A stretch of 64,000 bases of DNA from a virus (IMGVR_UViG_3300033388_003553:7434-71433), one strand, 5' to 3'. Shown: positions 11,764 to 53,678, counted from the stretch's first letter. The notes: generated by a model not told the origin, from the sequence alone. Numbers and translations: made by a program.

Positions 11764-11802
11764 ATTTACAATCAATTTTTACAAAGTTAAAACACTTAAA
11801 CA

Positions 11803-12276: not shown

Positions 12277-12362
12277 TATAAACATCTAAATGTAATTAAT
12301 TACAAACATAACTAATTAATAGTCAACACATTAAAAATTAAATTAAAAATAATTACAAAAAC

Positions 12363-12394
12363 ACTTGTTTTTTAATAAAACTTTTGTATATTTG
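12363..12394 (+). promoter_or_regulatory. Bacteroidota-type sigma70 promoter of tRNA operon 1
   Basis: ACTTG...TTTTG-TATATTTG (-7 TAnnTTTG); near-identical at 16143-16174 and 26394-26425. Confidence 0.7.
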
Positions 12395-12452
12395 TAGTAT
12401 ATTTAAAACAAAGGGGTAACTCTTAATACAAACAAAAACAAAAACATTTTCA

Positions 12453-12536
12453 ATGCAAACAATTGTAAACATATTAACACTTAACTTAGTCTTATGCCTA
12501 TCGGTATTAGACGGGTCGAGCTATGTGTTTACGTAA
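12453..12536 (+). CDS. Attenuator leader peptide of tRNA operon 1 (MQTIVNILTLNLVLCLSVLDGSSYVFT)
   Basis: 27 codons, Leu/Val/Cys-rich; 3' end overlaps the antiterminator segment 12515-12530. Confidence 0.75.
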   Translation: MQTIVNILTLNLVLCLSVLDGSSYVFT

Positions 12537-12559
12537 GTATAGAAAACTTAAACATATTC

Positions 12560-12593
12560 AAGCTCGATTCAGTTACTGAATCGAGCTTTTTTT
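12560..12593 (+). terminator. Intrinsic terminator (attenuator) of tRNA operon 1
   Basis: AAGCTCGATTCAG-TTA-CTGAATCGAGCTT followed by a T tract. Confidence 0.85.
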
Positions 12594-12641
12594 ATGTCTA
12601 ATATGTCTTGGTTTGTCGAAAAGGTAGGTCTTTGAAATAAT

Positions 12642-12731
12642 GTCTCAGTGCTCCGAGTGGTCGAAGGGGGTGGGTTGCAACCCCACCAAAGCGTAGTTGC
12701 TTCATCATAGGTTCGAATCCTATCTGGGACT
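12642..12731 (+). tRNA. tRNA-Cys(GCA) with long variable arm
   Basis: Acceptor GTCTCAG/CTGGGAC, anticodon GTGGG-TT GCA AC-CCCAC, TTCGAAT loop, U73. Confidence 0.8.
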
Positions 12732-12910
12732 CATGAATTGCAAAAAGTTTGTACAAAATGTGGGTAAGAAAATGAAGTGTAGGTGAGATTCTAACTCACC
12801 TACACTTCATACCGCTTCCGACTGGTCGGACTTTTGAATTTATAAACTTAAGGGGTGGATGAAGTCCCATAAGAACTAAAAAGATTAGGTAGACTGCAAG
12901 TCCACCAAAT

Positions 12911-12982
12911 GCTCTGTGGATGTGATGGTCAGCATACTTGTTTTACATACAAGGTGAGAAGGTTCGATTCCTTCACGGAGTA
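12911..12982 (+). tRNA. tRNA-Val(TAC)
   Basis: CTTGT-TT TAC AT-ACAAG; GGTTCGATTCC. Confidence 0.85.
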
Positions 12983-12992
12983 CAACACAAAT

Positions 12993-13066
12993 AGGGGTGT
13001 AGCCGAATTGGTATAGGCAACAAGCTTAGACCTTGAAATCTGTGGGTTCGAATCCCACCACCCCCA
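12993..13066 (+). tRNA. tRNA-Leu(TAG), short variable region
   Basis: CAAG-CT TAG AC-CTTG; GGGTTCGAATCCC. Confidence 0.75.
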
Positions 13067-13079
13067 CTGCCTAAACTTC

Positions 13080-13227
13080 GCTACGTGGAGCATTGGAGAG
13101 TCATGGCAAGGATTTAATTTTAGCGGGTAAGCAACCTAGGAACGTGAGACCCAAGTTTATTAAATTCGACTCAAAGCTCGCTGGGGGCATATCCCAGAGG
13201 CAACAGGTTCGATTCCTGTCGTAGCAA
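13080..13227 (+). ncRNA. tRNA-like RNA with a large insertion in place of the anticodon arm
   Basis: GCTACG/CGTAGC acceptor and ACAGG-TTCGATT-CCTGT T arm. Confidence 0.45.
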
Positions 13228-13238
13228 CAATAATATAT

Positions 13239-13312
13239 TGCGGGGTGGACTGGAGTGGCTCCAGCTGGGTCTCATAAGCCCAATCACGGGGGTTCGAATC
13301 CCCCTCCCGCTA
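13239..13312 (+). tRNA. tRNA-Met(CAT), initiator-like
   Basis: TGGGT-CT CAT AA-GCCCA; unpaired 1:72. Confidence 0.8.
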
Positions 13313-13321
13313 CTAACACAT

Positions 13322-13406
13322 GGCCTTGTGGTGAAATTGGTAAACACAGGGGACTTAAAATCCCCCGCCCATTTAGGGCTTGTCGGTTCGAATCCGACCA
13401 AGGCTA
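13322..13406 (+). tRNA. tRNA-Leu(TAA)
   Basis: GGGGA-CT TAA AA-TCCCC; long variable arm. Confidence 0.9.
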
Positions 13407-13430
13407 CAAAGCACAAGTACTTGTGCTGGA

Positions 13431-13521
13431 TTAGATATGATGGAATTGGTAGACATGACCCCTTAGTCGGGGTGGAGAAAACTTTTGTCACTCCGTGTAG
13501 GTTCGAGTCCTACTATTTAAC
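13431..13521 (+). tRNA. Degenerate Leu-type tRNA (TAG-like)
   Basis: Leu-type D arm GATGGAATTGGTAGACAT, long variable arm and T arm; irregular anticodon loop. Confidence 0.5.
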
Positions 13522-13523
13522 CC

Positions 13524-13607
13524 CCCCAAGTGGTGAAATTGGTAAACACACAACCTTGAGGTGGTTGTGTCCGAAAGGATGTGTGGGTTCGACTCCCACC
13601 TTGGGGA
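13524..13607 (+). tRNA. tRNA-Leu(GAG)
   Basis: CCCCAAG/CTTGGGG; CAACC-TT GAG GT-GGTTG. Confidence 0.9.
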
Positions 13608-14413
13608 CAAATAAAAGTAAATATTATTTGTTTGAATTAATAATTATTAGATAATATTTATTAATATGAATAGATTTATTTTAATAGTGGTAATATTAAT
13701 TTCACTCACAACATCATGTAGTTCATCACAACATATTTGTGATGCTTATGTATCAGATAACACAACAATAGATGACAATAAAATATGAAAAAATTTAATA
13801 GAGTATCATCGATAATCGTATTTATACTAGGATTAATTGGTAGTATAAGTTTTTGGGTATTTATTGTACAAGGAGATGTATTTGAGGATTGGTACCCACT
13901 AGTTTCGATGTTCGTATCAACACATTCGGCATTAATAGGTGTTATTTTTTATGAGATAATGAGGTACACAGGTAAGTCATTCAAAGAATTATTCAAAAAA
14001 AATAATTAAACTTTTGGTTAAATAGAATATTATCCTTATATTTGAATAAGAAAGTCGATTCAATTGATATTTATTGATGAGTTGGTTTAAGTTAAACTAA
14101 AACATAAAAAGTATGGGAATTATAACATTTATTTTATTAGTAATATTAATTATAATTAGGGTTATTGAGTGTTATTTGTTTATGAAAAAGGTGAGTAAAG
14201 CTTGTCGAGCATATGACATGAAACACATAGAAAATAATGAATTATTACTTTTGGAGATGTTAGAACGTGAAGATTACTATATTACTAGTGATTGGTCAGC
14301 ATACAATTTCTTATATTTAAAAGGACCAAACCCTTTGTGTTTGTTTTTCTCTGTAAAACCAATCACTATTGAAGCACAATATAATAAAAAAGTTGTTGAA
14401 AAACTAAACACAT

Positions 14414-15061
14414 ATGAAATTAACTGAAGCATACAACAAAGTCATTCTAGATGAATTTTGGAACGGATTAGAAGAAGAACTTCAATTAGATGAATCTGAG
14501 AGTGGATTAAAAAACCTAATCGGGCAAGCAAACGAAATTATATTCAAGAAATTTCAAATAAACCCAAAAGATAGAGAATACTGCATAGTTGGTTCAGCAA
14601 GATTATATTTATACCCACAACTTAGGGATGCCTTTGGGTTAGAAGGAACTATTGGTGATTTAGATATGGTAATACCAGACAAGAAACACTGGATACAAGC
14701 TGGTTTAGAAGAAAACTGGAATAAAGGTGGGGTTTATAGACCAACTGATGATGGTTCAATTGAAGCGTTTAATGTGTGGGACCCAGCAAAAGCTGGTGGG
14801 GAATACGCTGACGTTCAAGTAAGGTCAACCCAAGAAGTAATCAAAGATGGTACACTAATTAATGGTTATTACTTTATGTCATTACAAGATATTATAGATT
14901 ATAAAATGTCTATGAATAGAGAAAAAGAACAAGATATTGTTAACCTTATTTCAGCTTATCAAAAAAGTGGGTCATCAAACAGAATGGAACTACTTAGAAG
15001 AATGGCCAAAATAATTGGCTTGAATAAAACCAAAGAATTCTTAGGTAAAGTAGCTAAATAA
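14414..15061 (+). CDS. Nucleotidyltransferase-like protein
   Basis: IVGSA...GDLDMV...IEAF (GS...DxD...E). Confidence 0.5.
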   Translation: MKLTEAYNKVILDEFWNGLEEELQLDESESGLKNLIGQANEIIFKKFQINPKDREYCIVGSARLYLYPQLRDAFGLEGTIGDLDMVIPDKKHWIQAGLEENWNKGGVYRPTDDGSIEAFNVWDPAKAGGEYADVQVRSTQEVIKDGTLINGYYFMSLQDIIDYKMSMNREKEQDIVNLISAYQKSGSSNRMELLRRMAKIIGLNKTKEFLGKVAK

Positions 15062-15063
15062 AT

Positions 15064-15987
15064 ATGAAATCACTAATTAAAAAATTACTCAGAGAATCAT
15101 TATTAACTGAACTAAGGGTAATTAACCCTAAATCAATTTCTAAAGAAGAACCACTTAAAGACTCTGATACGATAAGGGTATATCATGGTTTTAATGATTA
15201 TGAAGATGCAATTATGGCAGTAAAGTTTGGATTTTCTGGTAAGGAAAAGGCTAAAAGAATTTATTCATATGAGTCTAACAATAACCCTAATGGACTATTT
15301 GTTACTTTAGATTTAGAAACAGCAAAAAAATTCACGAGTCCAAGAAGTAAAAGAGGTATCACAGTTATTATGGAACTTAGTGTTAAAGTATCAGAATTAG
15401 AGGCACCAGTATGGCCTAGTGGTTCTTATACAGTACAAGGTCAGATGTCTAAAAATTGGAGAAATGATAATGATAGATACGAAAATGGTACACTTAAAGC
15501 TAGGGAAAAAGCATCACAAAGTAAGTATGGGTTTATTAGTGGTGCCGATAGACCAGAGTTAGCTGCAACTTTAATGGGGTCAGAGAACCAAGCATTATAT
15601 ATGGGAGATATAAACCCCAATATGATTAAACGTGTATTTTTTGGTGAATCTGGTAAACATAACCTTATTGCTAAAAATCTAGATAGGATATCCCCTAAAG
15701 AATTCCTTAGTAAGTTTGAAACACATGAGCCAGAAAGGATAAAACATAGTAGAAGCGGTAAAGAAGTTGAAACATTGAGTAATAAAGGACAAGAGTATTA
15801 TAATAAGAAAAGAAAAATATTCCAACCCAATGACGATTTCTCAATGGATATCTTATCACAAAAATTAAAAGATATTGGATTTACTGATGGTAGTAAAAAA
15901 CAATCACTAGAATTTCTAAATAATGAATATTCAGTTGGTTATTTATGGCCTAAACAACTAAAACAACTGGAAGATAATAAAATATGA
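15064..15987 (+). CDS. Possible ADP-ribosyltransferase-fold protein with MKSLIKKLLRE leader
   Basis: VYHG...GLFVTLDLETAKKF resembles ART strand motifs. Confidence 0.4.
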   Translation: MKSLIKKLLRESLLTELRVINPKSISKEEPLKDSDTIRVYHGFNDYEDAIMAVKFGFSGKEKAKRIYSYESNNNPNGLFVTLDLETAKKFTSPRSKRGITVIMELSVKVSELEAPVWPSGSYTVQGQMSKNWRNDNDRYENGTLKAREKASQSKYGFISGADRPELAATLMGSENQALYMGDINPNMIKRVFFGESGKHNLIAKNLDRISPKEFLSKFETHEPERIKHSRSGKEVETLSNKGQEYYNKKRKIFQPNDDFSMDILSQKLKDIGFTDGSKKQSLEFLNNEYSVGYLWPKQLKQLEDNKI

Positions 15988-16225
15988 AATCACTAATCAA
16001 AAATTACCCATAGATATAGTTTTAATCATCAGAACAATAAGTATTAGAAACTTTCTTATAAAAAAATAAAAAATAAGTTACCCCTTTAAACCCCCATAAA
16101 AACTAGGAACTTAAAAAAAAGTATAAAAATATTTTCAAAAATACTTGCTATTTAAAATAACTTTTGTATCTTTGTACCATACTTATAAACAACGAGACTA
16201 ATTAAGTCTCACAAAAAATAAAAAA

Positions 16226-16315
16226 ATGAACACAGTATTTAACATATTTGATTTTAACTTTGAAGCAGCCGAGGCGGATTTTAGCCTAGGGTGGTCGAGT
16301 ATTGTCAAAAGTTAA
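16226..16315 (+). CDS. Attenuator leader peptide of tRNA operon 2 (MNTVFNIFDFNFEAAEADFSLGWSSIVKS)
   Basis: 29 codons, Phe/Asp/Glu/Ala-rich; contains the antiterminator GTGGTCG 16291-16297. Confidence 0.78.
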   Translation: MNTVFNIFDFNFEAAEADFSLGWSSIVKS

Positions 16316-16338
16316 GTATTTAAACATACAACATTTAC

Positions 16339-16370
16339 AAGCCGACCACGAAAGTGAGTTGGCTTTTTTT
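16339..16370 (+). terminator. Intrinsic terminator (attenuator) of tRNA operon 2
   Basis: AAGCCGACCAC-GAAA-GTGAGTTGGCTT followed by a T tract. Confidence 0.85.
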
Positions 16371-16380
16371 ATGTTAATAT

Positions 16381-16452
16381 GTAACCTTGGAAGTAGTGGT
16401 CCTTCGTCTGGTTGAAGCCCAGAAAAGCTCGGTTCGAATCCGAGAGGTTGCA
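16381..16452 (+). tRNA. tRNA-Phe(GAA)
   Basis: TCTGG-TT GAA GC-CCAGA; CTCGG-TTCGAAT-CCGAG. Confidence 0.75.
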
Positions 16453-16460
16453 CAAAACAT

Positions 16461-16532
16461 AGCCCCATCGACTAGCGGTTAGGTCGCCACCCTCTCAAGG
16501 TGGAAACATCGGTTCGAATCCGATTGGGGTCA
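16461..16532 (+). tRNA. tRNA-Glu(CTC)
   Basis: CCACC-CT CTC AA-GGTGG. Confidence 0.85.
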
Positions 16533-16568
16533 CTAAGATTTGGTTCTTTGACGTATTGAAATGATTAT

Positions 16569-16643
16569 GGTGTGGTAGCTCAGAGGTAGAGCAGTAGGTT
16601 GAAAACTTACGTGTCGCTGGTTCGATTCCAGCTCGCACCACCA
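16569..16643 (+). tRNA. tRNA-Phe(GAA)
   Basis: GTAGG-TT GAA AA-CTTAC; encoded CCA. Confidence 0.9.
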
Positions 16644-16646
16644 AAT

Positions 16647-16721
16647 GCTCGGTTGGTCTAACGGCTAGGACGTGTGGTTTTCAGCCATAAGCTAGGGGTT
16701 CGATTCCCCTACCGAGTACCA
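16647..16721 (+). tRNA. tRNA-Glu(TTC)
   Basis: TGTGG-TT TTC AG-CCATA; encoded CCA. Confidence 0.85.
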
Positions 16722-16768
16722 AGTGTCAGTTACTAGTGGTTCTGAACGAAATAAAATGCTACTAAATT

Positions 16769-16840
16769 CGCCCCATCGTCTAACGGTTAGGACGCTAGGT
16801 TTTCAACCTAGAAATAGGAGTTCGATTCTCCTTGGGGTGG
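16769..16840 (+). tRNA. tRNA-Glu(TTC)
   Basis: CTAGG-TT TTC AA-CCTAG. Confidence 0.85.
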
Positions 16841-16891
16841 CTGGACATACTTTCGTACTTTTTCTCTATATTTATATAGAAAAAATATATT

Positions 16892-17506
16892 ATGGCGAGA
16901 AAGGAAAAAAAGTATCACTTTATCTATAAGACAACTAATAAGTTATCGGGTAGATATTACATTGGAATGCATAGTACTAATAACTTGGACGATGGTTATA
17001 TGGGTTCTGGTAATCGATTAAGGTTAGCAATAAGGAAACATGGTAAAGAAAACTTTATTAGAGAGATTCTAGAGTATTGCAATACTAGAGATGAATTAAG
17101 AATACAAGAAGCAAAAGTAATTACTTTAGAAGAAGTTGCGAAGGAAGAGTGTATGAATCTAGCTGTGGGTGGTGAAGGTGGTTATACGAATTCTGGTGGA
17201 CCAGAAGCTTTCGCTAAGAAAGTAAAAGAAGATAAAGAGTTTGGTGATAGGGTAAAAAAGACTCTTTTAGGGAATGTAAAGAAAGCCCATAAGAATGGTA
17301 ATATACCTTATGATAATTTTCAAGGTAAAACACATTCTGACGAAACTAAAAATAAGATGAGTGAGTCTAGTAAAGGACAAGGTAAAGGTTCAGCAAACTC
17401 ACAATTCGGAACTTGCTGGATTACCAACGGTGAAGAAGTTAAGAAGATTAAAAAAGAAAACCTCGATTCTTATATCAGTGATGGTTGGAGACGAGGAAGA
17501 AAATAA
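16892..17506 (+). CDS. GIY-YIG homing endonuclease with NUMOD3 motif, inside the tRNA operon
   Basis: FIYKTTN...YYIGMHS...GYMGSG; GKTHSDETKNKMSES. Confidence 0.85.
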   Translation: MARKEKKYHFIYKTTNKLSGRYYIGMHSTNNLDDGYMGSGNRLRLAIRKHGKENFIREILEYCNTRDELRIQEAKVITLEEVAKEECMNLAVGGEGGYTNSGGPEAFAKKVKEDKEFGDRVKKTLLGNVKKAHKNGNIPYDNFQGKTHSDETKNKMSESSKGQGKGSANSQFGTCWITNGEEVKKIKKENLDSYISDGWRRGRK

Positions 17507-17581
17507 TAATATGGGGTCATAGTTTAAATGGCTAAAATAGGGGTTTTATGAGTATGACTGATAGGAAAGACTATCATTTAC

Positions 17582-17657
17582 GGTTACGTGGTCTAGTCTG
17601 GTCAAGGATGTCTGCCTGTCACGCAGAAGGTCGAGGGTTCGAATCCCTTCGTAACCG
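17582..17657 (+). tRNA. tRNA-Asp(GTC)
   Basis: TCTGC-CT GTC AC-GCAGA. Confidence 0.9.
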
Positions 17658-17790
17658 CTCGGTGTCACACAATGTCTCCAAGGACGCTTTGACGTTTAAA
17701 GAGCTTGGTAAGGTAACATAGGAAGTGTGTTGGATAAATTGAAAGTGACTTGTAGTGAAGTGTGATGACGCTACAAAATCCAACGAATAT

Positions 17791-17864
17791 GGGCCATTGG
17801 TGAAGCTGGCTATCACACCGCTCTTGCACAGCGGAGTCCTCGGTTCGAAGCCGTGATGTGTCCA
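17791..17864 (+). tRNA. tRNA-Ala(TGC)
   Basis: CCGCT-CT TGC AC-AGCGG; imperfect acceptor stem. Confidence 0.75.
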
Positions 17865-17927
17865 CATGTATGTAGTTCGATTTGACTTTTTTCCACTTTT
17901 TATTTTTTTTATATAAAAAGGAATATT

Positions 17928-18344
17928 ATGGGAAAATGTAAGAATTGTGGTGTTGAAATTTTAGTTAAAACTAGGAGAGTTCACTGTAGTGATGAATGTA
18001 GAAAAGAATATAGGAGAAAAGATATGGATGATTATTTAAAATATAAACGAGATGTCCAATTTAGCTTTGCTTTAAATGATTATCCAGATAAATTTGATTT
18101 TGACTTAATTAAAGAGTATGGGTGGTATTCACCATCAAACTCTAATAAACCAAATATTAATGGTGTTAGTAGAGACCATATGTTATCAGTCAGAGAAGGT
18201 TTTGAAAAAGGGGTTAACCCTAAATTATTATCGCATCCAGCAAACTGTGAGTTAATGGTTCATGGTGATAATATAAGTAAAAATAAAAAATCTTCAATAA
18301 CGGAAGATGAATTAATAAAACGAATTGAAGAATGGGAAAAATAA
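17928..18344 (+). CDS. HNH-type endonuclease with N-terminal zinc finger
   Basis: CKNC...CSDEC; SRDH...HPANCELM...N..K. Confidence 0.65.
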   Translation: MGKCKNCGVEILVKTRRVHCSDECRKEYRRKDMDDYLKYKRDVQFSFALNDYPDKFDFDLIKEYGWYSPSNSNKPNINGVSRDHMLSVREGFEKGVNPKLLSHPANCELMVHGDNISKNKKSSITEDELIKRIEEWEK

Positions 18345-18459
18345 GTACCACCAGAGTCACGAGTTCGATTCTCGGTGACTCCACAAATTATTTTTTATAA
18401 AAGTTTGGTATTTAAAAATATTAATTATATATTTGTGATGCATAAAAAAATAAATTAAT

Positions 18460-19389
18460 ATGAAAAAGACAAAAGTAAGTGACAACGCTTTAAATGAAAT
18501 TAAGTTAATTAAGTTAAAACGAATTTTAGAAGAATTTAGAGGTGATGATTCAACAGATGGTGTTTTTACCATTAACGGTGAAAAAATACGTGCAACACAT
18601 ATTGAATGTACCCCAGAATTAGCCCAATACATTTTAGATGAATTCAACGACAGTAATAGGCCCGCTAAAAAAGTTAATTTAAATTATTTAAAACGTGAGA
18701 TTTTAAATGGTAATTGGTTGACCAATGGTGACACCATTAAGTTTAATAATGATGGGTCAATGAATGATGGTCAACATAGATTAAAGTCTATCATTGAAAC
18801 CAATGTTACGTTACCATTGATTGTTATTAGTGGTCTTACAACCAAAAGTTTTAAAAGTTTAGATGTTGGTACTAAAAGAACTGGTTCGGATGTATTAGCA
18901 GTAAAGGGTGTTAAAAATTCAACAAACTCCGCTTCAGTAGTTAAATTTATTCATGCTTTTAGTAACAATAAATATAGTGAAAACACCATGGCAACTAGGA
19001 CATTAAGTAATACTAATATTGAAGATTATTATGATTTATTGATGCCAAACATTGAAACATCAGTTAAATTTATTAATAATTATTCTAGTACTTGTAAGGG
19101 ATTTATTAGACCAACATTAATTGGTGGTTTTCATTATTTACTTGGTGAAATTGACCCAGAACTTAGGGATGAGTTTTTAATTAAATTATGTACAGGTATT
19201 GGGTTAGAGGCTGACTCACCAATCACAGCACTAAGGTCAAAATTAATTAGGATTCAGTATGATAAAAATAGTCGTTTAACCAACTTAGATATGTTAAAAA
19301 ATATTGTTTATACTTGGAACAAGTGTAGAAAAGGTCAAACAGCAAAAAATATCAAAATACCGTCAGATTTTAAAATTAAATTATTATAA
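18460..19389 (+). CDS. ParB-like N-terminal domain protein (paralogue of 22645-23496)
   Basis: NR...GNW..NG..I......DGQHRL. Confidence 0.65.
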   Translation: MKKTKVSDNALNEIKLIKLKRILEEFRGDDSTDGVFTINGEKIRATHIECTPELAQYILDEFNDSNRPAKKVNLNYLKREILNGNWLTNGDTIKFNNDGSMNDGQHRLKSIIETNVTLPLIVISGLTTKSFKSLDVGTKRTGSDVLAVKGVKNSTNSASVVKFIHAFSNNKYSENTMATRTLSNTNIEDYYDLLMPNIETSVKFINNYSSTCKGFIRPTLIGGFHYLLGEIDPELRDEFLIKLCTGIGLEADSPITALRSKLIRIQYDKNSRLTNLDMLKNIVYTWNKCRKGQTAKNIKIPSDFKIKLL

Positions 19390-19461
19390 GACGTAATTTT
19401 AATTAAAAATGTCTCAAAATATATTTTGAGACATTTTTTTTTTTAATTAATATTTATTAGT

Positions 19462-19971
19462 ATGAAAACATTAATCAAAAAATTACTTAGAGAAGCACTA
19501 ACTAATGAATATAATATACCTACTTTAAGTTTAACAAAAGATATTAAAATATCTAATGAAGAAAAAGCGAAAGTCATGGGATTAAATTGGTCTGATATAA
19601 TTATTGACCAGAAAACTGAGTCATCACCCATACAGTTGAGTGTTAATGTACCTTGGGATTCAAACATATCGGAAGGTATTGCTGTAGATTTACAAATAAT
19701 TAATGATACATTATTTCAAATACACATATCATTAAGTGATGATTTACAAGGATTAGGTTTAGGGTACAAAATATATAAAGCATTAATTATGACTTATGGT
19801 CATTTATATTCTGGTAAAGGTAGGAGACAGAACACCACCCAAGTACCTAAGATATGGTCAAAATTAAATTCTGACTCAGAAATTACGTGTGCATCTAACG
19901 ATAATGGTGATATTTGTGTTTTGAATGCAAATCCAGATAGGGACACATTATTAGGTTATTTTAATAATTAA
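19462..19971 (+). CDS. GNAT-like acetyltransferase with MKTLIKKLLRE leader
   Basis: LQGLGLGYKIY (Q/RxxGxG motif A). Confidence 0.5.
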   Translation: MKTLIKKLLREALTNEYNIPTLSLTKDIKISNEEKAKVMGLNWSDIIIDQKTESSPIQLSVNVPWDSNISEGIAVDLQIINDTLFQIHISLSDDLQGLGLGYKIYKALIMTYGHLYSGKGRRQNTTQVPKIWSKLNSDSEITCASNDNGDICVLNANPDRDTLLGYFNN

Positions 19972-20021
19972 AAACTTTACTATTAATTATTTTAATAGTA
20001 TTTTTATAAAAAGTTATAAAT

Positions 20022-21442: not shown

Positions 21443-21480
21443 TCACACAAATATAAAGTTAAATTCATTTTATATAATAT

Positions 21481-21735
21481 ATGAAACCTAAGATAGATAA
21501 AAAAAGGCATTTACTCAAGGCAATTACTTGGAGAATTATCGCTAGTATTACTAGTTTTTTACTTGTGTGGATTGTAACTGGTAATATTAATGCAGGTTTA
21601 TCAATTGGGTTTGCCGATGTTGTTATTAAATTTATACTTTATTATCTACATGAGCGGGCTTGGTATAACTATGATTTTGGTATTCACCGTAAAAATATGA
21701 AAAAAAAACATAATATATTTGGTGAACACAAATAA
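21481..21735 (+). CDS. DUF2061 membrane protein
   Basis: RHLLKAITWR...YYLHERAW. Confidence 0.8.
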   Translation: MKPKIDKKRHLLKAITWRIIASITSFLLVWIVTGNINAGLSIGFADVVIKFILYYLHERAWYNYDFGIHRKNMKKKHNIFGEHK

Positions 21736-22644
21736 ATTATCTATATTTGCGTTAAACAAATAAAATATATTATGAGTAAATTTGCAAATAAGTTATCTGC
21801 ATCTAATAAAGATATTAGAGAAGACAGAGCAGAAATGTTATCACAAGAGGTGGCATTAGAGGTTTCAACTTTAGTTACTAAGTTAGAAAAAGAAAAATTA
21901 CAATTAAGAAATAAGATTAGTCGTTTAACGGATTTAGCACCAGATTCTAAGGATTCTTTGAGGCCAACATCTAACGATTTTTGTCCAGCTACTTGGGTAT
22001 CTGAATTACATAAAACCAATTTAGACCTTAAACTTAAAACTATTGAGTTAGATATTGCTAAAGATATTAATAAAGAATGGTTTAGTGAAGAAAATTAATA
22101 ATTATGAAGAAAATTTATTTAGCTAAATCAAACCAGACAAACCCAGACGAACTATTAGCTGTTAGAGCAAAACTAAAAGAATATAATTGTGAAATTGTTG
22201 AATATACTGGTGGTAGGTTTTCACACACACCTATGTTAGAATCAGATATACTACTGGTACTACCCAACCTTAAAAAATTTAACGACACTAATATTATAGG
22301 TAAGGGTTTATTTTCACAAATAGAAACATTTGATGACAACACCCAAAAACCAATGTTTGTTATTTTTAATATTGATACTGATGATGATTTAATTGAGATT
22401 GGTACTGTTGAGGAAATGGAAGTCCACGATTGCCTTGACTATATTGAATATGGTTCAGTATATATCGACCCATGTGGTCCAATGACTGATACTATTGAAG
22501 AGCTATTAGGTTTAGAGGTTGCAAACCACAAACCAGTTAGTACTAGTAAGTTAAACAAATATTTGTTAATTGGAAAATAATTTACAAAAAAGCTTGTAGG
22601 TTTAGAATATAAATTATAAGTTTGCTGTAAGAAAAAAAATAAAT

Positions 22645-23496
22645 ATGAATACAGAAATTAAAACGGAGTTACAGAAATCAACATTCGAGATTAACGGATT
22701 AAAAGTTAAGATTGCATTGGTAGATATAACACCAGAGGTGGCTGAGAGCTTACTATCAAAAAATTCAAACAACAGAACATTATCACCTAGTAATGTTAAA
22801 TTTTTAACTAACGAGATTTTAAATGGTAATTGGCAATTTGATGGTCAACCAATTAGAATTGATTATAATGGTAATTTATTAGATGGTCAACATCGGTTAA
22901 ATAGTATTATCAAGAGTGGTGAAATTATTAAGTGTTTTGTTATTTTTGGTTTAAGACCAGAAACATTTAAAGTAATGGATACTGGTAAAATTAGGACTGC
23001 ATCAGATGTTTTATCAATTGAGAAGATTAGTAACTCAAGTTATGTTGCTACTTCATTGAAATTACTAGATGCAATTAAAGCTGGTATTTATTCTGGTCAT
23101 AAGAGAAGAACATTATCGAACACTGAGGTCTTAGAGTATTATGAGAATAATATGGGGATTTCAAATAGTGTGAATTATGTTAAATCTGTTAGTCGTAATT
23201 TTAAATCGATTGTATCAGTTTCAATTTTAAGTACATTACATTATTTGTTTTCTGAGATTTCAGAATCAGATGCTAATGAATTCATTGGTAAGTTATGTAG
23301 TGGTTCTGGATTGAATGAGAATTCACCAATCTTAGTATTGAGAAACAAATTGATTAAAGCTAATTCTAGTGATAAGAATAAGTTGACTAAAAAAGACATT
23401 ATTGGGAATATCATTTTAGGTTGGAACAAGTACCGTGAAGGTGAAGAAATTAAAATGTTATCTTTGAAAAAAGATTTCGATTTTATTGCAAAATAA
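22645..23496 (+). CDS. ParB-like N-terminal domain protein
   Basis: ITPEVA...NNR...DGQHRL...DTGKIRT. Confidence 0.65.
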   Translation: MNTEIKTELQKSTFEINGLKVKIALVDITPEVAESLLSKNSNNRTLSPSNVKFLTNEILNGNWQFDGQPIRIDYNGNLLDGQHRLNSIIKSGEIIKCFVIFGLRPETFKVMDTGKIRTASDVLSIEKISNSSYVATSLKLLDAIKAGIYSGHKRRTLSNTEVLEYYENNMGISNSVNYVKSVSRNFKSIVSVSILSTLHYLFSEISESDANEFIGKLCSGSGLNENSPILVLRNKLIKANSSDKNKLTKKDIIGNIILGWNKYREGEEIKMLSLKKDFDFIAK

Positions 23497-23552
23497 GAAT
23501 TAATTTCGTAACTTTGCATTGTTAGAAATAACAAAACGTTTTTTGAAATATT

Positions 23553-23865
23553 GGAGAAATTAAATAAAATTGGTTGTACAAGGATAGAGTGGTGCTCGGT
23601 AGGTACAGTAACGAGGAAGGGACCAATATATGTGTTAGTCGATAGACTGGCGTAATATCTATTCATCCGTTATAGTTAACGGCAATACGGAAGGAAAGTT
23701 TTCGCAAACCTACTTAGCTTTTGTAATGTAAAAGCAACACGGAGAAAATCCAGAAGTAACTGGTAAATCGGGCAGCGTTAATCGCACGGAATTGCCCCGT
23801 AATTAAGGTGAACAAAAATCCGTTATACCTTAAGATTGTGAGTGAAAATCTTACTTTCTCCACTA
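23553..23865 (+). ncRNA. About 313-nt structured RNA with tRNA-like ends
   Basis: GGAGAAA/TTTCTCC-ACTA, T-arm-like GTGAG-TGAAAAT-CTTAC, own TAACTTTG promoter, no sense ORF. Confidence 0.5.
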
Positions 23866-23891
23866 AATAACGCAAACAAAAATTAATTAAT

Positions 23892-24500
23892 ATGGGTAGT
23901 TTAGGTTCATGGGATGCATCAGTATCCCTAAATATGAGGGTTGACCTTAAGAAAAGTAAGGAAAACAGTTTAGAGGATATTCAAAAGTTTATTAAAAAGA
24001 ATAAGCAACTTTTGGAAACCACTAAATCAATTGATAAATTAGTAAAAACCGATGTTTTGGTTGCTATTGAATTTTATGACGAAGATGATGATGAATTAGA
24101 TTACATTGAATTATCAAGCTTAGGTCTTAAAGATGTTTTAGCTAAACCATTTATTGAGGATAAAGAATACTCTAAACACGAGGAACTAGCAGAATTCGAT
24201 GGTGATTATTCTTCACCAGAAAATTGGTTGTATAAGGTTTTGGTTGATAGGTCACGATTAGAAACTAAACTTAAGTTTGTTAACTTAAAGAAATTAAAAG
24301 ACCACATATATGGTTGGGATGTTAATTCACCATATATTGTATTTGATAGTATGGAGTTAGCATCATGTGGTGATTATATTTATTGTGGAAACGATAATTC
24401 TAGTTCCGATACATTTAAGGTGACTAAAAAATTCATCGATAGTTTAAGCGTTGGTGATATTATTGTGTTAGAAGGGAATGGTGATGGAGAACATTGCTAA
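23892..24500 (+). CDS. Hypothetical acidic protein
   Basis: ORF track. Confidence 0.55.
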   Translation: MGSLGSWDASVSLNMRVDLKKSKENSLEDIQKFIKKNKQLLETTKSIDKLVKTDVLVAIEFYDEDDDELDYIELSSLGLKDVLAKPFIEDKEYSKHEELAEFDGDYSSPENWLYKVLVDRSRLETKLKFVNLKKLKDHIYGWDVNSPYIVFDSMELASCGDYIYCGNDNSSSDTFKVTKKFIDSLSVGDIIVLEGNGDGEHC

Positions 24501-24723
24501 ATAAAATATGGGGTGTAGTCAAATGTGGGCTATTGATGGAGCAATACCATCCACTTCCACTAGCAGTTGCTTGACTCCGTATAGTACAGCAACAACCATT
24601 GGGGTGTCGGAAGCTCATGAATGGTGGCAAAGGGTAAGGCTAAACCTTTAAGTTAGAGTGCCTAAAACAAAGGAAACGAAGTAGTATGGTGACATATTAT
24701 TGGTGCCGAATCTCTAACAACAC

Positions 24724-24888
24724 GGGGTTATCACACCTTCGGGGTCACATTGGAAAGTTACAACCAATACCCTTGGGTAATAACGGTAAGTCGGAAACAT
24801 ATTATAAGGTGTACGTTAAATGTACTAGTTACACGCTACTTGTAATGTAAGAATGATAATGTTAGTTCGAGTCTAACTAACCCCACTA
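24724..24888 (+). ncRNA. tRNA-like-ended multi-hairpin RNA
   Basis: GGGGTTA/TAACCCC-ACTA; GTTAG-TTCGAGT-CTAAC. Confidence 0.45.
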
Positions 24889-25800
24889 GTGGTAGTTTGA
24901 TTGGATGCTTGGGTCGCTCCTAATACACAATACCTTTATTGATTTTAGGTTTTGTTATGTATCTATTTTAATTACATTATAAATAATACTTAATATGGGG
25001 ATGGGGTTTACTTAAGTAAACCCCATTTATTTAAATATAAATTTTTTGTAGTTTTTTATTATCTAATATATTTATATATATATATGGAAATGAGTAACTT
25101 AATAACTAACACTGATGAAGAAGGTAGTAAACAGAAAGAAGATATCGACTTTAGTCCTAATGATAGCGATGTTTCTAAATCCACTAGGGTACGATGCACT
25201 GTTTTACATGGTGATGAAAGTTACGGGAAATTCTTATGGTCTTACCACAGGTATTTTTTACCTAGCATCTGCTTCATTATTTGGTCTATATTGTTACTTA
25301 CTTGAAATTACCCCATTTACTTGGGTCAACAAACAATTGGTTACATTAAAAAACAAATTTAAGAAATAAACCATCATAAGCTTGATTTATAAGGATAAAA
25401 TTTGTATATTATAAATTAGATTATGAAATTTGACTTTGATAAATATAAAAAACGTAGATTTCACGATAACGATGATATTGATAAAAAAATAAAGGTATTA
25501 TTTTTATACTATGATTATCAAGTAATCGATAAAAAACTAGGTTTAACACAACAATTAAGATTGTTAGATATTTGGGTGATTAAATTAATTCAATATGAGT
25601 TATATGAAGTAATACCAATGTTCAAACTAAGGCGTTCAGTTTTAATTAAACAAATTAATCGACTTAACCAAAGGGGAACACCAATATTAGGTAGTTTTTT
25701 AAGTAAATTAAAAAATATATGGGTTAGGTTTAAAAAAATAGTAAAAAAACCTATTAAAATAAAATAAAGCTGTATATTTGCACTAATAAAAACAATAATT

Positions 25801-26307
25801 ATGAGTAATAACTTTGACAATTTATCCGATGACTTCTTAAATGAAGGTGATAACAATAAAGGTGAAACAAATAAACCTAAAGACGAACCAACCAATAATA
25901 ATCCTAACTTTGAAGCTATATTTGATTTGGAAAATCTATCGGATGATTTATCTCCAGAAATATTAGATATTATCAAGGCAATTTCTGATATTAAAGAAAC
26001 TAACATTGATATTTCAGATAAATTAAACCTTGGTGAACCAGACGAACATGAAACCACCGATGAAGACGGTAATACAATTGATAGGAGTGTTTGGTATACG
26101 GATTTTGGTTCAGTTACAAGAATTTCATCAATGGATGAATTTCCAGAAATGGACCCAGAATTATTTATAGATTTTCTAGGAAATAAATTTGGTGGAACAC
26201 CAATTAACCAAAATATAACATTAGAAGAAAAATTAAAAATTGCAGAAGATAAGGAAGATTACTTAGAATGTGCAAGATTAAGGGATGAAATCTTAAAAAA
26301 AAAATAA
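25801..26307 (+). CDS. Acidic protein with C-terminal UVR (UvrB/C) motif
   Basis: LEEKLKIAEDKEDYLECARLRDEI. Confidence 0.6.
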   Translation: MSNNFDNLSDDFLNEGDNNKGETNKPKDEPTNNNPNFEAIFDLENLSDDLSPEILDIIKAISDIKETNIDISDKLNLGEPDEHETTDEDGNTIDRSVWYTDFGSVTRISSMDEFPEMDPELFIDFLGNKFGGTPINQNITLEEKLKIAEDKEDYLECARLRDEILKKK

Positions 26308-26470
26308 AACACCCTCAAACACAGACAATACGGGGGATTCATAAGTAAATTTTTAAAACAAAATAAAATAAATTAAAAAAAAATACAAAAAAAACTTGCT
26401 AATTGTAAATCTTTTTGTATATTTGTACTAGTTATTAAAAACAAGAGATTATTTCTCTAATAAAAAAAAA

Positions 26471-26572
26471 ATGAATTTAATAGGAATGACATATCAACCG
26501 AAAACGAAACAGCAAGGCGGGAAGCCTAGTAGAACGGGTATGTTATATCTAAAAAGTACTAATTGGGATTAA
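26471..26572 (+). CDS. Attenuator leader peptide of tRNA operon 3 (MNLIGMTYQPKTKQQGGKPSRTGMLYLKSTNWD)
   Basis: 33 codons; codons 7-19 are all T/Y/Q/P/K/G; antiterminator CGGGTATGTTA 26535-26545. Confidence 0.78.
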   Translation: MNLIGMTYQPKTKQQGGKPSRTGMLYLKSTNWD

Positions 26573-26594
26573 CCAATACGATACTTAAAATAAC

Positions 26595-26624
26595 AAACCC
26601 GACCACACTAGTCGGGTTTTTTTT
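26595..26624 (+). terminator. Intrinsic terminator (attenuator) of tRNA operon 3
   Basis: AAACCCGAC-CACACTA-GTCGGGTTT followed by a T tract. Confidence 0.85.
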
Positions 26625-26692
26625 GTGTCCATATTTTTTTAAACGGGACCTAAAATAAAGTTTAAAAGTTCTTTGACATCGTGGTGATAAAT

Positions 26693-26765
26693 AGCGCAGT
26701 AGCTTAATGGCTAGAGCACCTAGTTTGGGACTAGGGAAGTGTCAGTTCGAATCTGACTTGTGCTA
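26693..26765 (+). tRNA. tRNA-Pro(TGG)
   Basis: CCTAG-TT TGG GA-CTAGG. Confidence 0.85.
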
Positions 26766-26919
26766 CTATAAATACTAAGTGTTCTAACTAAGGTGAGTAT
26801 TAGTATTAATAACAAGTAACTGGGAAGTACAACCAATGAAAAGTATTATGAAAGTATAAACAGAATGAAGATATCGGGAGAGCCGAGGATATATGGTGCA
26901 AGCCCTATCTTAGTAAATT

Positions 26920-26993
26920 CGAGAAGTGACTAAGGATTTAAGCACGGGGGGTCTGGAGCCTTCTGTTAGTCGGTTCGATTCCGACCTTCTCGA
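26920..26993 (+). tRNA. Atypical tRNA-Pro(TGG)-like
   Basis: CGAGAAG/CTTCTCG-A, loop TC TGG AG, good T arm, poor D arm. Confidence 0.5.
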
Positions 26994-26999
26994 CTAAAT

Positions 27000-27099
27000 G
27001 CGGAAATAGTGTAATGATAGCACGGGGCTAGTTTAGGTCCAAGTGGGATTAGTCAAATAGTACTCAATGTGACTAATGGTTTGATTCCCCCTTTCCGCT
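27000..27099 (+). pseudogene. Degenerate Gly-type tRNA
   Basis: GCGGAAA/TTTCCGC-T with Gly-like D arm; anticodon and T arms disrupted. Confidence 0.4.
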
Positions 27100-27133
27100 C
27101 AATAATAACTAAGTAATATAAATTTAATAAATT

Positions 27134-27211
27134 CGGGATGTTATGCAGATGGCTATACAACGGTACCTTGGACGTATCGGTTCGCTGGTTCGAATCCAGC
27201 CATCCCGACCA
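27134..27211 (+). tRNA. tRNA-Pro(TGG)
   Basis: CGGGATG/CATCCCG-ACCA; CT TGG AC. Confidence 0.85.
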
Positions 27212-27271
27212 TAATATTATTACTAATATATAGATATGTTGATTATATTAATGTGTGTATAATTAGATTAT

Positions 27272-27358
27272 TTTGGGATATGCAAATTGGCGAAGCAGCT
27301 AGACTTTGAATCTAGTCAGATAAAGTTCACATTGTAGGTTCGAACCCTACTCCCAAAA
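27272..27358 (+). tRNA. tRNA-Gln(TTG), long variable region
   Basis: CTAGA-CT TTG AA-TCTAG. Confidence 0.8.
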
Positions 27359-27365
27359 CAAATAT

Positions 27366-27441
27366 TGCCTTGTCGTCTACGTGCTGGTTAGGACGCAAGT
27401 TTTTGACACTTGAAAAGAAGGTTCGACCCCTTCTGAGGCAA
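27366..27441 (+). tRNA. tRNA-Gln(TTG)
   Basis: CAAGT-TT TTG AC-ACTTG. Confidence 0.8.
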
Positions 27442-27806
27442 CAAAATTAAATTAATAAAACACTTGCTTTATTGGTTTATAGTAGTAATTTTGCAAAAAA
27501 AAAGAAAATGTTAAAAAAAGAAATAAAAGTATATGATACAACAACAACACCATTAGAAATAACACAACATGCGTTGGTTAACTTTCTGTATGGTTTTTTA
27601 AATGGTTTGGTTATTATAACAATGATAATTGGAAATCCATGGTTAATACTCACAGCATACTATGTATTAAAGCAAGTGGAGAGTAAAGTATTAAATAGAA
27701 ATAAATACACTAGTAAATTTGGGAAGAGGTTCTTATTTCCAATACCTAGTACGTTAGGATTCTTATTAGGTTGGTATTTAGGAACTTTCTTTAAATAAAG
27801 AAACGA

Positions 27807-27878
27807 TTGTGATGAAGTGTAATGGTTGCACGGGTGGCGTTGGGCTGCCAAGATTTGGTTCGAATCCAAACTCACAAC
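27807..27878 (+). tRNA. Atypical tRNA-Gln(TTG)-like
   Basis: GGTGG-CG TTG GG-CTGCC; TTTGG-TTCGAAT-CCAAA. Confidence 0.5.
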
Positions 27879-27961
27879 TAGATAATAATTTAAAGAATGG
27901 TTACAGCAAAGTTAAAAAAGTTCAATTTTTGTTTGAAAACAACCACACCATTCTGTTATTT

Positions 27962-28043
27962 GGGTGTATTGAGCAATTGGCTGCTCAACAGACTGTAAAT
28001 CTGTCGTCTTCGGACATTGGGGGTTCGAACCCCTCTACACCCA
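27962..28043 (+). tRNA. tRNA-Tyr(GTA)
   Basis: ACAGA-CT GTA AA-TCTGT; long variable arm. Confidence 0.9.
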
Positions 28044-28048
28044 CACAA

Positions 28049-28224
28049 TTTGGTTAGCACTATACAAAATGAACTAGGAAGTGCAACTGGGGATGTTGTA
28101 GATACGGTAGGCTACACCAGACTGTAAATCTGGACCTTTAATTAGGCGTTGTGGGTTCGAATCCCTCCAGCCCCACATTTGACATTTTTGGTTAGCACTA
28201 GACAAAATGAACTAGGAAGTGCAA
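28049..28224 (+). repeat. 38-nt direct repeat (28049-28086 and 28187-28224) following each tRNA-Tyr
   Basis: TTTGGTTAGCACTA(T/G)ACAAAATGAACTAGGAAGTGCAA, one mismatch. Confidence 0.85.
28089..28175 (+). tRNA. tRNA-Tyr(GTA)
   Basis: CCAGA-CT GTA AA-TCTGG. Confidence 0.85.
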
Positions 28225-28227
28225 TTT

Positions 28228-28301
28228 GGCTCCATAGTTTAATTGGCTTAAAACACTAGACTTGTAATCTTGAGACCTCAGTTCGATTCTGAGTGGAGCC
28301 T
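28228..28301 (+). tRNA. tRNA-Thr(TGT)
   Basis: GGCTCCA/TGGAGCC; CT TGT AA. Confidence 0.85.
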
Positions 28302-28428
28302 CAACAAAAATATACTGGGTTTTGACACCATTTTACCGTTAGGAAACGGGACATAAAGGGATTTAAAAAGTCCTGTCCCCGAAACAGAATAATAAATAGG
28401 TGTGACGGATGCCGAGAGAGGCATATTT

Positions 28429-28499
28429 GCATCATAAGTGTTACGATAGCATATGGGCTTTCCACGTCCAAGGCGAGGGTTTGACTCCCTCATGGTGCA
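28429..28499 (+). tRNA. tRNA-Gly(TCC)
   Basis: TGGGC-TT TCC AC-GTCCA. Confidence 0.75.
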
Positions 28500-28538
28500 C
28501 AACTTAGTTTATCAGTTCTAAAATTAAAAACTGATAAT

Positions 28539-28611
28539 GCGACAGTAGCTCAAAGGTTAGAGCACCATATTACCAATATGGGGGTTGAGATTTCGAAATT
28601 CTTCTGTCGCT
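28539..28611 (+). tRNA. tRNA-Gly(ACC), rare A34 anticodon
   Basis: GCGACAG/CTGTCGC-T; CCATA-TT ACC AA-TATGG. Confidence 0.7.
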
Positions 28612-29011
28612 CAAATATGAGTATGCTTACTCTTGTAGTGAAAGGGTAGCCCCACGTAAGGGGTGTGCTAAAAAAGCTAAGGACTGAAAAACAAAAATCT
28701 ACTGAGTACGTATTAAGTAGTTTGGAGTGAAATAGGTGACGGTTCCGATGTAAATCGGGTCTTGAGGTGCGAATCCCCACATACTCACTAAATATCCATA
28801 ACAAGTCGGTTAATGTGTGACACTAGGTTGGTAAATAAATCTAGTGTTACAGGATTTAATACTATGGGGTTCGACTCCCCGAATGAACACGAAAATAAAA
28901 TCATAAATAATTAAAAATAAAAACGATGAAAAATTTATTGAAACTTAAACACAAAAGTAAACAGTAAAGCATTCGGCTCAAAAGAGTTACGGGTGCTAAT
29001 AATAAAATTAT

Positions 29012-29086
29012 TCCCCCATAGCTCAGAGGCAGAGCACTCGACTTTTAATCGAGGGGTCGTGATATCGTAATTCACTGGGGGGACCA
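29012..29086 (+). tRNA. tRNA-Lys(TTT)
   Basis: CTCGA-CT TTT AA-TCGAG; encoded CCA; atypical T loop. Confidence 0.8.
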
Positions 29087-29179
29087 AATATAACACCATA
29101 AAAAAAATAACCATATTTTTATTTGGTAAACTAATATATATATTTCGTATTTTTGTGTGAAAAATTAAAACAATATATT

Positions 29180-53254: not shown

Positions 53255-53263
53255 TATAATACT

Positions 53264-53677: not shown

Positions 53678-53678
53678 T

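Follow-up and report, generated by a model that had tools for sequence, protein, structure and literature searches.

The window analysed here is a stretch of 64,000 nucleotides of viral DNA, bases 7434-71433 of the 71.4-kb IMG/VR virus record IMGVR_UViG_3300033388_003553, which carries three operons of transfer RNA (tRNA) genes. Judging from sequence and comparison, each of these operons is probably (with a probability of roughly 0.8) under the control of a classical ribosome-mediated leader-peptide transcription attenuator: a short open reading frame (ORF), whose codons are mostly those read by the tRNAs encoded downstream, precedes a terminator whose 5' arm can also pair with a segment near the end of the ORF. 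In the usual numbering, this segment is region 2 and the two arms of the terminator are regions 3 and 4. The comparison establishes the parts of the leaders and their order, a frame-specific match between codons and tRNAs, and predicted 2:3 and 3:4 pairings that co-vary. An earlier interpretation, made from the sequence of the window alone (the sequence-only reading), is supported in its core.

Layout of the three leaders

At all three tRNA clusters the same elements follow one another in the same order, 5' to 3': a promoter, a hairpin of 5-6 bp, an A-rich stretch, an ORF starting with ATG, a spacer, a terminator and the tRNAs (Table 1). Every element of the layout described in the sequence-only reading is present. 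The spacer between the ORF and the terminator hairpin is 23 nt long, and the first tRNA lies 17-76 nt past the terminator. The terminator hairpins are G+C-rich, with stems of -11.5 to -17.2 kcal/mol, and are followed by 7-8 T. The small hairpin of the 5' untranslated region is missing from the leaders of other phage lineages.

The three tRNA promoters consist of a TTG element, a spacer and the box TAT(A/C)TTTG, and are near-identical across about 35 nt. The class TTG ... TAnnTTTG is one that we take to be of the Bacteroidota type. The window contains many promoters of this class (23 on the + strand and three on the - strand), those of the tRNA operons having additional flanking identity in common. 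In none of the three window operons does a promoter consensus follow the terminator ahead of the tRNAs; transcription of these tRNAs should therefore depend on read-through of the terminator.

Match between leader codons and downstream tRNAs in the window

In each leader, a block of codons that ends at codon 19 matches the tRNAs of its own operon, at 9 of 12, 11 of 12 and 13 of 13 positions in leaders 1, 2 and 3, as had been noticed in the sequence-only reading. The same blocks have only 1-3 matches to the tRNA sets of the other two operons. When segments of the same length are drawn from the 59 long ORFs of the window (11,964 amino acids), the best-window scores of leaders 1, 2 and 3 are reached in 0, 0 and 632 of 200,000 draws, respectively.

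The fit can be followed at the level of codons. In leader 1, TTA, CTT, CTA, GTA and TGC correspond to the operon 1 anticodons taa, gag, tag, tac and gca; GAA and GAG are both present in leader 2, and operon 2 carries Glu-ttc and Glu-ctc; leader 3 has GGC and GGG, and operon 3 carries Gly-acc and Gly-tcc.

Recurrence in other phages

Scans of IMG/VR with promoter patterns gave 245 loci. With the most specific pattern, tRNAs start 220-400 nt downstream of 22 of the 108 oriented hits, and an ATG ORF of 22-33 codons is found in all 22; with a looser pattern, 7 of 113 hits have tRNAs within 1.5 kb, and these correspond to two leaders, two truncated leaders of the phage G001 and three other arrangements. 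The relatives compared are G001, which is complete (353 kb), the 152-kb G005, and the tRNA regions of four other large phages.

Leaders were called by a rule which is blind to their composition and was applied to every tRNA cluster: the terminator nearest the first tRNA is taken, followed by the ATG ORF whose end lies closest upstream of this terminator. This structure-only rule yields 33 non-redundant leaders from at least 25 contigs. Calls with ORFs of more than 45 codons (L165 at 10379, G005 at 60011, L167, L186 and also G008/L213, whose open frame extends upstream past the true ATG) or fewer than 20 codons (L169 at 3577, and G001 at 187713, which is also L009 and L015) were dropped before the counts. 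The call at G001 187713 is a mistake of the rule, since an overlapping 15-codon ORF ends closer to the terminator than the true leader of 29 codons. Contig ends cut the operons at L147 (13869), L166, L173 (377), L184, L224, L237 and L125 (1140), which lowers their match. The fit between leader and tRNAs is poor in L045 (4/24) and L245 (5/23), which may be false calls or incomplete operons.

The distance from the stop codon to the terminator is 14-44 nt over the 33 loci, and region 2 sits 3-10 codons ahead of the stop codon. The partition of the tRNAs into separately sensed modules, which the sequence-only reading proposed for the window, is also found in G001, G005, G006, G007 and G008: the window has three separately led modules, G001 and G005 at least five each, G007 four, G006 and G008 two each, and L116 one. 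G001 carries 60 tRNA genes and a transfer-messenger RNA (tmRNA).

A DNA similarity search against 50,697 GenBank phages returned only matches at the level of tRNAs and homing endonucleases, and no homologous leader. In a scan for the promoter pattern in one genome per prokaryote species, 120 loci were obtained, mostly from Bacteroidota, and two of them have a tRNA on the same strand within 600 nt; the layout was found only in L401, an 8.3-kb contig of a metagenome-assembled genome with a leader of the His/Asn/Ile family, in a scan which is no test of bacterial tRNA operons. L401 is most likely a phage fragment.

Leader content follows the grouping of the tRNAs

The same tRNA is grouped with different partners in different phages. 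That of Phe is found with those of Glu, Asp and Ala in the window, with those of Gln, Thr, Val and Leu in G007, and with eleven others in G006, and the leader is rewritten accordingly each time. In G006, the operon with tRNAs for F, I, Q, K, V, Y, C, H, R, W, L and N has the leader MKLVNKQIVKHVIQFCQNWYLRVF..., in which 23 of 23 control residues belong to the set and all 12 identities are used at least once. In G007, the operon for Q, F, T, V and L is preceded by MKTLTNILFVMTLTVLFQFTQT..., that for H, N, I, W, S and R by MKNWHNISSIHSNRINSS..., that for E and R by a leader with the control part ...THREERERY..., and that for Y, P, G, A, C and K by one with the control part ...YTYQPSTPKAGKVADKGC... 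The L066 operon (N, H, S, I, T, M and R) has the leader MRTINIHMISISNWRRNSIH..., and L116, with 26 tRNAs for all 20 amino acids, has a mixed leader whose 24 control residues comprise 14 different amino acids.

Permutation and frame tests were carried out on nine leaders, one per distinct kind of tRNA set, taken from the complete operons of G000, G006 and G007; L116, whose 20-amino-acid tRNA set is uninformative, and additional members of the same families are excluded from the permutations. Over nine leader families and nine tRNA sets, the observed summed match is reached by one of the 362,880 permutations, which is the identity, both for amino acids and for codons. The mean match between leader and tRNAs is 0.56 for own pairs compared to 0.26 for swapped pairs, and its own leader is the best for each of the nine tRNA sets. 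The sequence-only reading had named the absence of any leader/tRNA correlation in homologous loci as a result that would speak against it, and a correlation is what was found.

Of 52 amino acids for which the operon carries a tRNA, 50 are represented in the control region of the leader (Fisher p 1.6e-15), both misses being tRNAs with the anticodon CAT. The match amounts to 121/184 in the frame of the ORF, compared to 49/184 and 42/184 in the other two frames, and to 376/661 (57%) before region 2, compared to 78/273 (29%) after it. Particular codons also fit: the leader of L169 contains ATA and ATT for Ile, where its operon has Ile-tat and Ile-gat, and TCG and AGT for Ser, where the operon has Ser-tga and Ser-gct; Arg-tct is paired with AGA leader codons in G007; and the G008 leader has two extra Met codons, its operon being the only one of those compared in this case to carry a CAT tRNA.

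The match to anticodons at the codon level is as good as that at the amino-acid level, as it could also be if charged or uncharged tRNAs bound the leader triplets directly, in the manner of the T-box specifier, in a switch independent of translation. Such a switch is highly improbable. Indeed, each of the 33 leaders contains an ATG and an open frame whose stop codon stands at a fixed distance from the terminator, their insertions and deletions are whole codons, and the match is limited to one frame, which starts at the ATG. In addition, an Rfam 15 scan of positions 11500-30000 at E<=1 reports no family on the leader regions, T-box included, the only hits being the tRNAs and chance hits elsewhere, and a series of 10-20 different tandem triplets is unlike any known tRNA-binding RNA.

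The predicted terminator/antiterminator switch

When the best partner of the terminator 5' arm is searched from the ATG to the terminator, it falls within roughly the final 13 codons of the ORF in 33/33 leaders, in one of them just past an in-frame TAG. This pairing beats at least 195 of 200 shuffles in 21 of the 33. In the window, the antiterminator duplex of leader 1 has an energy of -16.1 kcal/mol (0/200 shuffles as good) and that of leader 2 an energy of -13.0 kcal/mol (3/200). The duplex of leader 3 is the weakest of the three when the 5' arm alone is considered (-8.7 kcal/mol, 11/200 shuffles as good), and reaches -14.4 kcal/mol with the spacer.

The pairing is specific to each leader. 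Between region 2 and the spacer plus 5' arm, the mean energy is -16.4 kcal/mol for own pairs versus -8.4 for swapped ones, and none of 100,000 reassignments is as good. Compensatory changes can be seen in the alignment of the His/Asn/Ile family, where two members pair GAGATG with CATCTC and another two pair GAGGTG with CACCTC; the alignment also contains a 3-nt in-frame indel. The terminator stems of window operon 2 and of its G001 homologue are unrelated, yet each is complementary to its own ORF segment. The attenuator geometry claimed in the sequence-only reading is seen here too, with control codons upstream, region 2 inside the ORF, a frame-specific match and a pairing that co-varies between families.

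Folding of the nascent RNA without the 3' arm predicts that the 5' arm pairs with codons 21-25 in operons 1 and 2. In the ribosome-free fold of operon 3, the antiterminator segment pairs instead with codons 5-9 (1:2 pairing), a structure which, in this model, a ribosome stalled in the control block would open. Shuffles with a 1:2 pairing as good number 0/300 for window operon 1, 6/300 for operon 2 and 36/300 for operon 3.

The motif [GT]TCTTTGA[ACT] is found between the terminator and the first tRNA in 15 of the 33 non-redundant loci, window operons 1 and 3 included. A motif similar to GTTCTTTGACAT also lies upstream of tRNA-Cys in the 735-kb phage LR756501. Its likeness is presumably to the boxA antitermination element of ribosomal RNA operons. 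In those operons, the boxA RNA recruits NusB/S10. By analogy, if the phage motif is a boxA, the complexes that read through may become resistant to termination across the tRNA array.

Proposed mechanism and its polarity

RNA polymerase would start at the strong Bacteroidota-type promoter, and a ribosome would load on the A-rich leader and translate the short ORF, of which codons 3 to 20 or so are mostly decoded by the tRNAs encoded downstream, region 2 being formed by codons 20 to 27 or so. If decoding is fast, the ribosome would cover region 2 and reach the stop codon; region 2 would be kept from region 3, and hairpin 3:4 would end transcription before the tRNAs. If decoding is slow because a charged tRNA is scarce, the ribosome would stall upstream, the free region 2 would capture the emerging 5' arm, no terminator would form and the tRNAs would be transcribed. 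A leader with several amino acids would act as an OR gate across all tRNA species of its operon. The new tRNAs of an operon decode its leader, so that each operon would be a negative-feedback module for supply on demand.

One doubt about this scheme concerns the sense in which stalling acts, which we infer to be activating. Control codons extend to codon 19 and abut the start of region 2 at codon 20-22, and a ribosome stalled on the final control codons would cover region 2 instead of leaving it free. The polarity could then be the opposite: stalled ribosomes would mask region 2 and cause termination, while fast translation with early release would give read-through, as a feed-forward device or a timer. 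The 1:2 protector helix is not general either (it is significant in only 5/16 leaders), which is another point in favor of this alternative. We nevertheless consider it unlikely. Most control codons are at least five codons upstream of region 2, beyond the footprint of a stalled ribosome; the stop codon follows region 2 by 3-10 codons and precedes the terminator by 14-44 nt, a spacing like that of trp and his, at which a terminating ribosome shields region 2; and a feed-forward device offers no obvious reason for a leader to match its own tRNAs.

Other observations weigh, together with the position of the last control codons and the limited occurrence of the 1:2 helix, against attenuation of the tRNA operons as proposed here. 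On the side of the codons, there are 45 amino-acid-by-leader cells for which the operon lacks a corresponding tRNA, codon numbers per amino acid do not track the copy number of the tRNA genes (rho 0.09, n=52), and the tRNAs do not account for a conserved N-terminal pattern (Met, x, Thr, x, x, Asn, Ile). On the side of distribution, the leader/terminator layout is missing from the tRNA arrays of two unrelated phages, the crAss-like cr111_1 and a 735-kb uncultured phage, and single tRNAs and some tRNA clusters have no leader. A -7-box consensus lies between the terminator and the first tRNA in 8/33 loci, none of them in the window, which suggests, at the level of sequence, tandem promoters of which one is attenuated and the other is not. 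Last, two of the four large operons of G001 (His/Trp/Ser and Pro/Gln/Tyr) keep the terminator and the antiterminator, and the 5' half of the leader, with its ATG, is gone; since this half is lost, control in these operons is dispensable or works otherwise.

Two of these observations, namely the -7 box after some terminators and the truncated ORFs of G001, and an N-terminal pattern which leaders 1 and 2 have in common and which suggests duplication, could also be accommodated if promoter, short ORF and terminator formed a separate small gene, for a small protein or a small RNA. The tRNAs would then be transcribed from elsewhere, and the match would come from co-adaptation or from descent from a duplicated cassette. 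This explanation appears very unlikely: the peptides are not conserved as proteins and their composition shifts with the tRNA set, no promoter consensus separates the terminator from the tRNAs in the window, and the permutation test controls for shared ancestry and base composition. It also leaves unexplained the constant, co-varying pairing between a segment of the ORF and the terminator 5' arm.

As for the trigger that would act on an attenuator of this kind, the sequence-only reading put forward starvation or anticodon nucleases of the host such as PrrC, RloC, VapC or PARIS; the decay of host tRNAs after infection, or the demand of the A+T-rich codons of the phage, would serve equally well. 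It is rather doubtful that the tRNA genes of large phages are run as codon-addressed and self-limiting sensors, in which each leader, as a barcode, gauges how well the cell can at that moment decode just those codons that its operon can rescue, and in which the loss of host tRNAs to anticodon nucleases, other tRNA-depleting defences or host shut-off triggers the production of only the matching replacements. If so, they would form an inducible circuit for counter-defence and translational homeostasis that needs no protein regulator and acts within one transcription cycle, and they would provide a natural, portable and programmable sensor of the availability of single tRNAs.

Relation to known systems

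Attenuators control the trp, his, thr, leu, pheA and ilvGMEDA operons of enterobacteria, and the ilv and thr leaders respond to several amino acids. The phage leaders resemble them in having a short ORF with regulatory codons, a terminator ahead of the structural genes and an antiterminator strand at the 3' end of the ORF. They differ in that they precede tRNAs rather than enzymes, with feedback through decoding and not through amino-acid supply, and in that they sample up to 12 amino acids, usually with 1-6 codons each and no long runs of a single codon. They also belong to phages with Bacteroidota-type promoters, lack a Shine-Dalgarno sequence and have no general 1:2 protector helix.

In the pheST attenuator of E. 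coli, as in the phage leaders, the controlled product is a component of translation that serves the sensed codon, but it is the synthetase for a single amino acid, and the gene is cellular. T-box riboswitches resemble the phage leaders in that the choice between terminator and antiterminator reports the state of a specific tRNA. T-boxes bind tRNA without a ribosome, through one specifier codon, have a conserved T-box sequence, and control genes of synthetases, biosynthesis and transport.

The tRNA genes of bacteria and phages are thought to be controlled via promoters and processing, and the tRNA arrays of phages are explained as a compensation for codon usage or as a replacement of host tRNAs lost to defence nucleases or host shut-off. 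The phages considered here are similar to those with known arrays, which are large and have near-complete tRNA sets. To our knowledge, such arrays have been described as constitutively or temporally expressed, and we know of no description of a sensing leader.

The general mechanism of leader-peptide attenuation is described in PMC1183508, and leaders of the pheL type in PMC3082878. In search listings, the first lines of abstracts and full-text search, a scope outside which subscription journals and supplements lie, no tRNA genes under leader-peptide control were found; the matches returned concern attenuators of amino-acid operons, synthetases and other genes. As far as these sources reach, the mechanism is classical, and the novelty lies in the genes regulated, the closed loop from sensor to output, the leaders that form a barcode of several amino acids, and the phage setting. 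Within the same literature, attenuation has so far been linked only with the supply of amino acids, with synthetases and with a handful of other protein genes.

If the phage leaders work as proposed, the sensor (the speed of decoding at given codons) and the output (the tRNAs for these codons) would form a direct closed loop. This would explain how phages with 20-60 tRNA genes avoid needless synthesis, and why the operons are split by particular tRNA composition, and it would offer a route for a quick answer of the phage to defences that target tRNAs. The leaders are short and modular, and have been rewritten in nature for many combinations of amino acids, from which testable design rules could be drawn. 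For annotation, a short ORF and a terminator ahead of a phage tRNA array should be read as a regulatory leader rather than as noise.

tRNA operons and coordinates of the features

The completeness of the record is estimated at 20%, from which a phage of about 350 kb follows. The window has a G+C content of about 30%, and its genes are all on one strand. ARAGORN detects 23 tRNA genes, in three clusters on the + strand. Rfam adds two tRNAs (27366-27441 and 28429-28499), which ARAGORN names Gln-ttg and Gly-tcc at a relaxed threshold. The positions of all leader elements are given in Table 1.

Table 1. Elements of the three tRNA operons and of their leaders, in window coordinates
Feature	Position	Strand	Content or remark	Source
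tRNA operon 1	12642..13608	+	Cys-gca, Val-tac, Leu-tag, CAT (Met or Ile2), Leu-taa, one odd tRNA-like gene, Leu-gag	ARAGORN, Rfam
tRNA operon 2	16381..17863	+	Phe, Glu-ctc, Phe, Glu-ttc x2, GIY-YIG homing endonuclease ORF, Asp, Ala	ARAGORN
tRNA operon 3	26693..29086	+	Pro x3, Gln x2, Tyr x2, Thr, Gly-tcc, Gly-acc, Lys	ARAGORN, Rfam
Promoter, operon 1	12365..12394	+	TTG element, spacer and TATATTTG box; near-identical to the other two	
Promoter, operon 2	16145..16174	+		
Promoter, operon 3	26396..26425	+		
Small 5' hairpin, leader 1	12411..12424	+	kept in the G001 homologue with a perfect stem	
Small 5' hairpin, leader 2	16194..16210	+		
Small 5' hairpin, leader 3	26444..26458	+		
Leader ORF 1	12453..12536	+	27 codons, MQTIVNILTLNLVLCLSVLDGSSYVFT; codons 8-19 match Cys, Val, Leu tRNAs (9/12)	
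Leader ORF 2	16226..16315	+	29 codons, MNTVFNIFDFNFEAAEADFSLGWSSIVKS; codons 8-19 match Phe, Asp, Glu, Ala (11/12)	
Leader ORF 3	26471..26572	+	33 codons, MNLIGMTYQPKTKQQGGKPSRTGMLYLKSTNWD; codons 7-19 match Thr, Tyr, Gln, Pro, Lys, Gly (13/13)	
Antiterminator segment (region 2), leader 1	12513..12531	+	codons 21-26; pairs with 12549-12570 (spacer and 5' arm)	
Antiterminator segment (region 2), leader 2	16290..16299	+	codons 22-25; pairs with terminator 5' arm 16339-16349	
Antiterminator segment (region 2), leader 3	26535..26546	+	codons 22-26; pairs with 26590-26601 (spacer and 5' arm), 5+6 bp with one mismatch by eye	
Terminator, leader 1	12560-12588, with T run to 12594	+	13-bp stem, 3-nt loop, -17.2 kcal/mol	
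Terminator, leader 2	16339-16365, with T run to 16371	+	-14.9 kcal/mol	
Terminator, leader 3	26596-26618, with T run to 26625	+	-11.5 kcal/mol	
boxA-like motif, operon 1	12627..12638	+	between terminator 1 and tRNA-Cys	
boxA-like motif, operon 3	26668..26679	+	GTTCTTTGACAT; between terminator 3 and the first tRNA-Pro	

Two of the arrays contain other genes. A GIY-YIG homing endonuclease ORF of the Seg-like type (16892-17506) sits within operon 2, at the junction between the Glu and Asp tRNAs; segB is inserted likewise in the tRNA region of T4. Operon 3 is interrupted between the Gln and Tyr tRNAs by a Bacteroidota-type promoter at 27464 and an ORF of 108 amino acids (27472-27798).

Several of the tRNA calls are odd (13431-13523, 12642-12732, 26920-26994 and 27134-27211). 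Among them are one with a two-base 'anticodon', a tRNA-Cys of 91 nt and two tRNA-Pro genes which are not reported by the Rfam tRNA model; these tRNAs may be intron-bearing, degenerate or non-canonical. The idea, formed by eye, that a tRNA-Ser had escaped detection in the 131-nt gap after the terminator of the G007 His operon was not confirmed by Rfam and was dropped.

Natural variants and other uses of the promoter

The truncated leaders of G001 lie at 154279-154645 (L024) and 205706-205941 (L026). In both, an identical promoter cassette of 42 nt now borders directly on the middle of what was the leader, whose ATG and earliest control codons are missing; the residual frames read INWRRNSYQNSQG... 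and QYTQGVKPS... Intact forms of these leaders are carried by G005 and L066, and from their sequence the truncated forms look like natural regulatory mutants. The loci with a -7 box after the terminator include G007 2410, G006 13065, G008 18155 and L245.

In the G005 leader at 91186 (L199), which belongs to the Phe/Glu/Asp/Ala kind, an in-frame TAG precedes the antiterminator segment, and G005 also has two tRNAs whose anticodon is CUA, which suggests that amber codons are read through or recoded in this phage.

At G001 142532-142968 (L022) and 145806-146642 (L023) and in L124, the same promoter family directly drives a phage tmRNA, without a leader, and also an RNA stretch of about 700 nt that ends in a tRNA-Met, inside which Rfam gives only a weak tRNA-like hit of 98 nt.

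Other genes of the window

A Pnkp-like tRNA-repair enzyme had been suspected at 20022-20978. Pfam assigns this part to an APS (adenylylsulfate) kinase and a HAD-like part, and the candidate was rejected as a context of tRNA damage. At 20022-21442, the APS kinase fused to the HAD-like domain is followed by a cytidylyltransferase-like ORF (Pfam); the two are possibly a pair for auxiliary sulfur or nucleotide-sugar metabolism, as far as domain assignments indicate.

A cluster at 49843-55196 resembles the PrkA/YeaG serine kinase and shares 57% identity with proteins of uncultured phages of >600 kb; its neighbours match a PHROG named sporulation protein.

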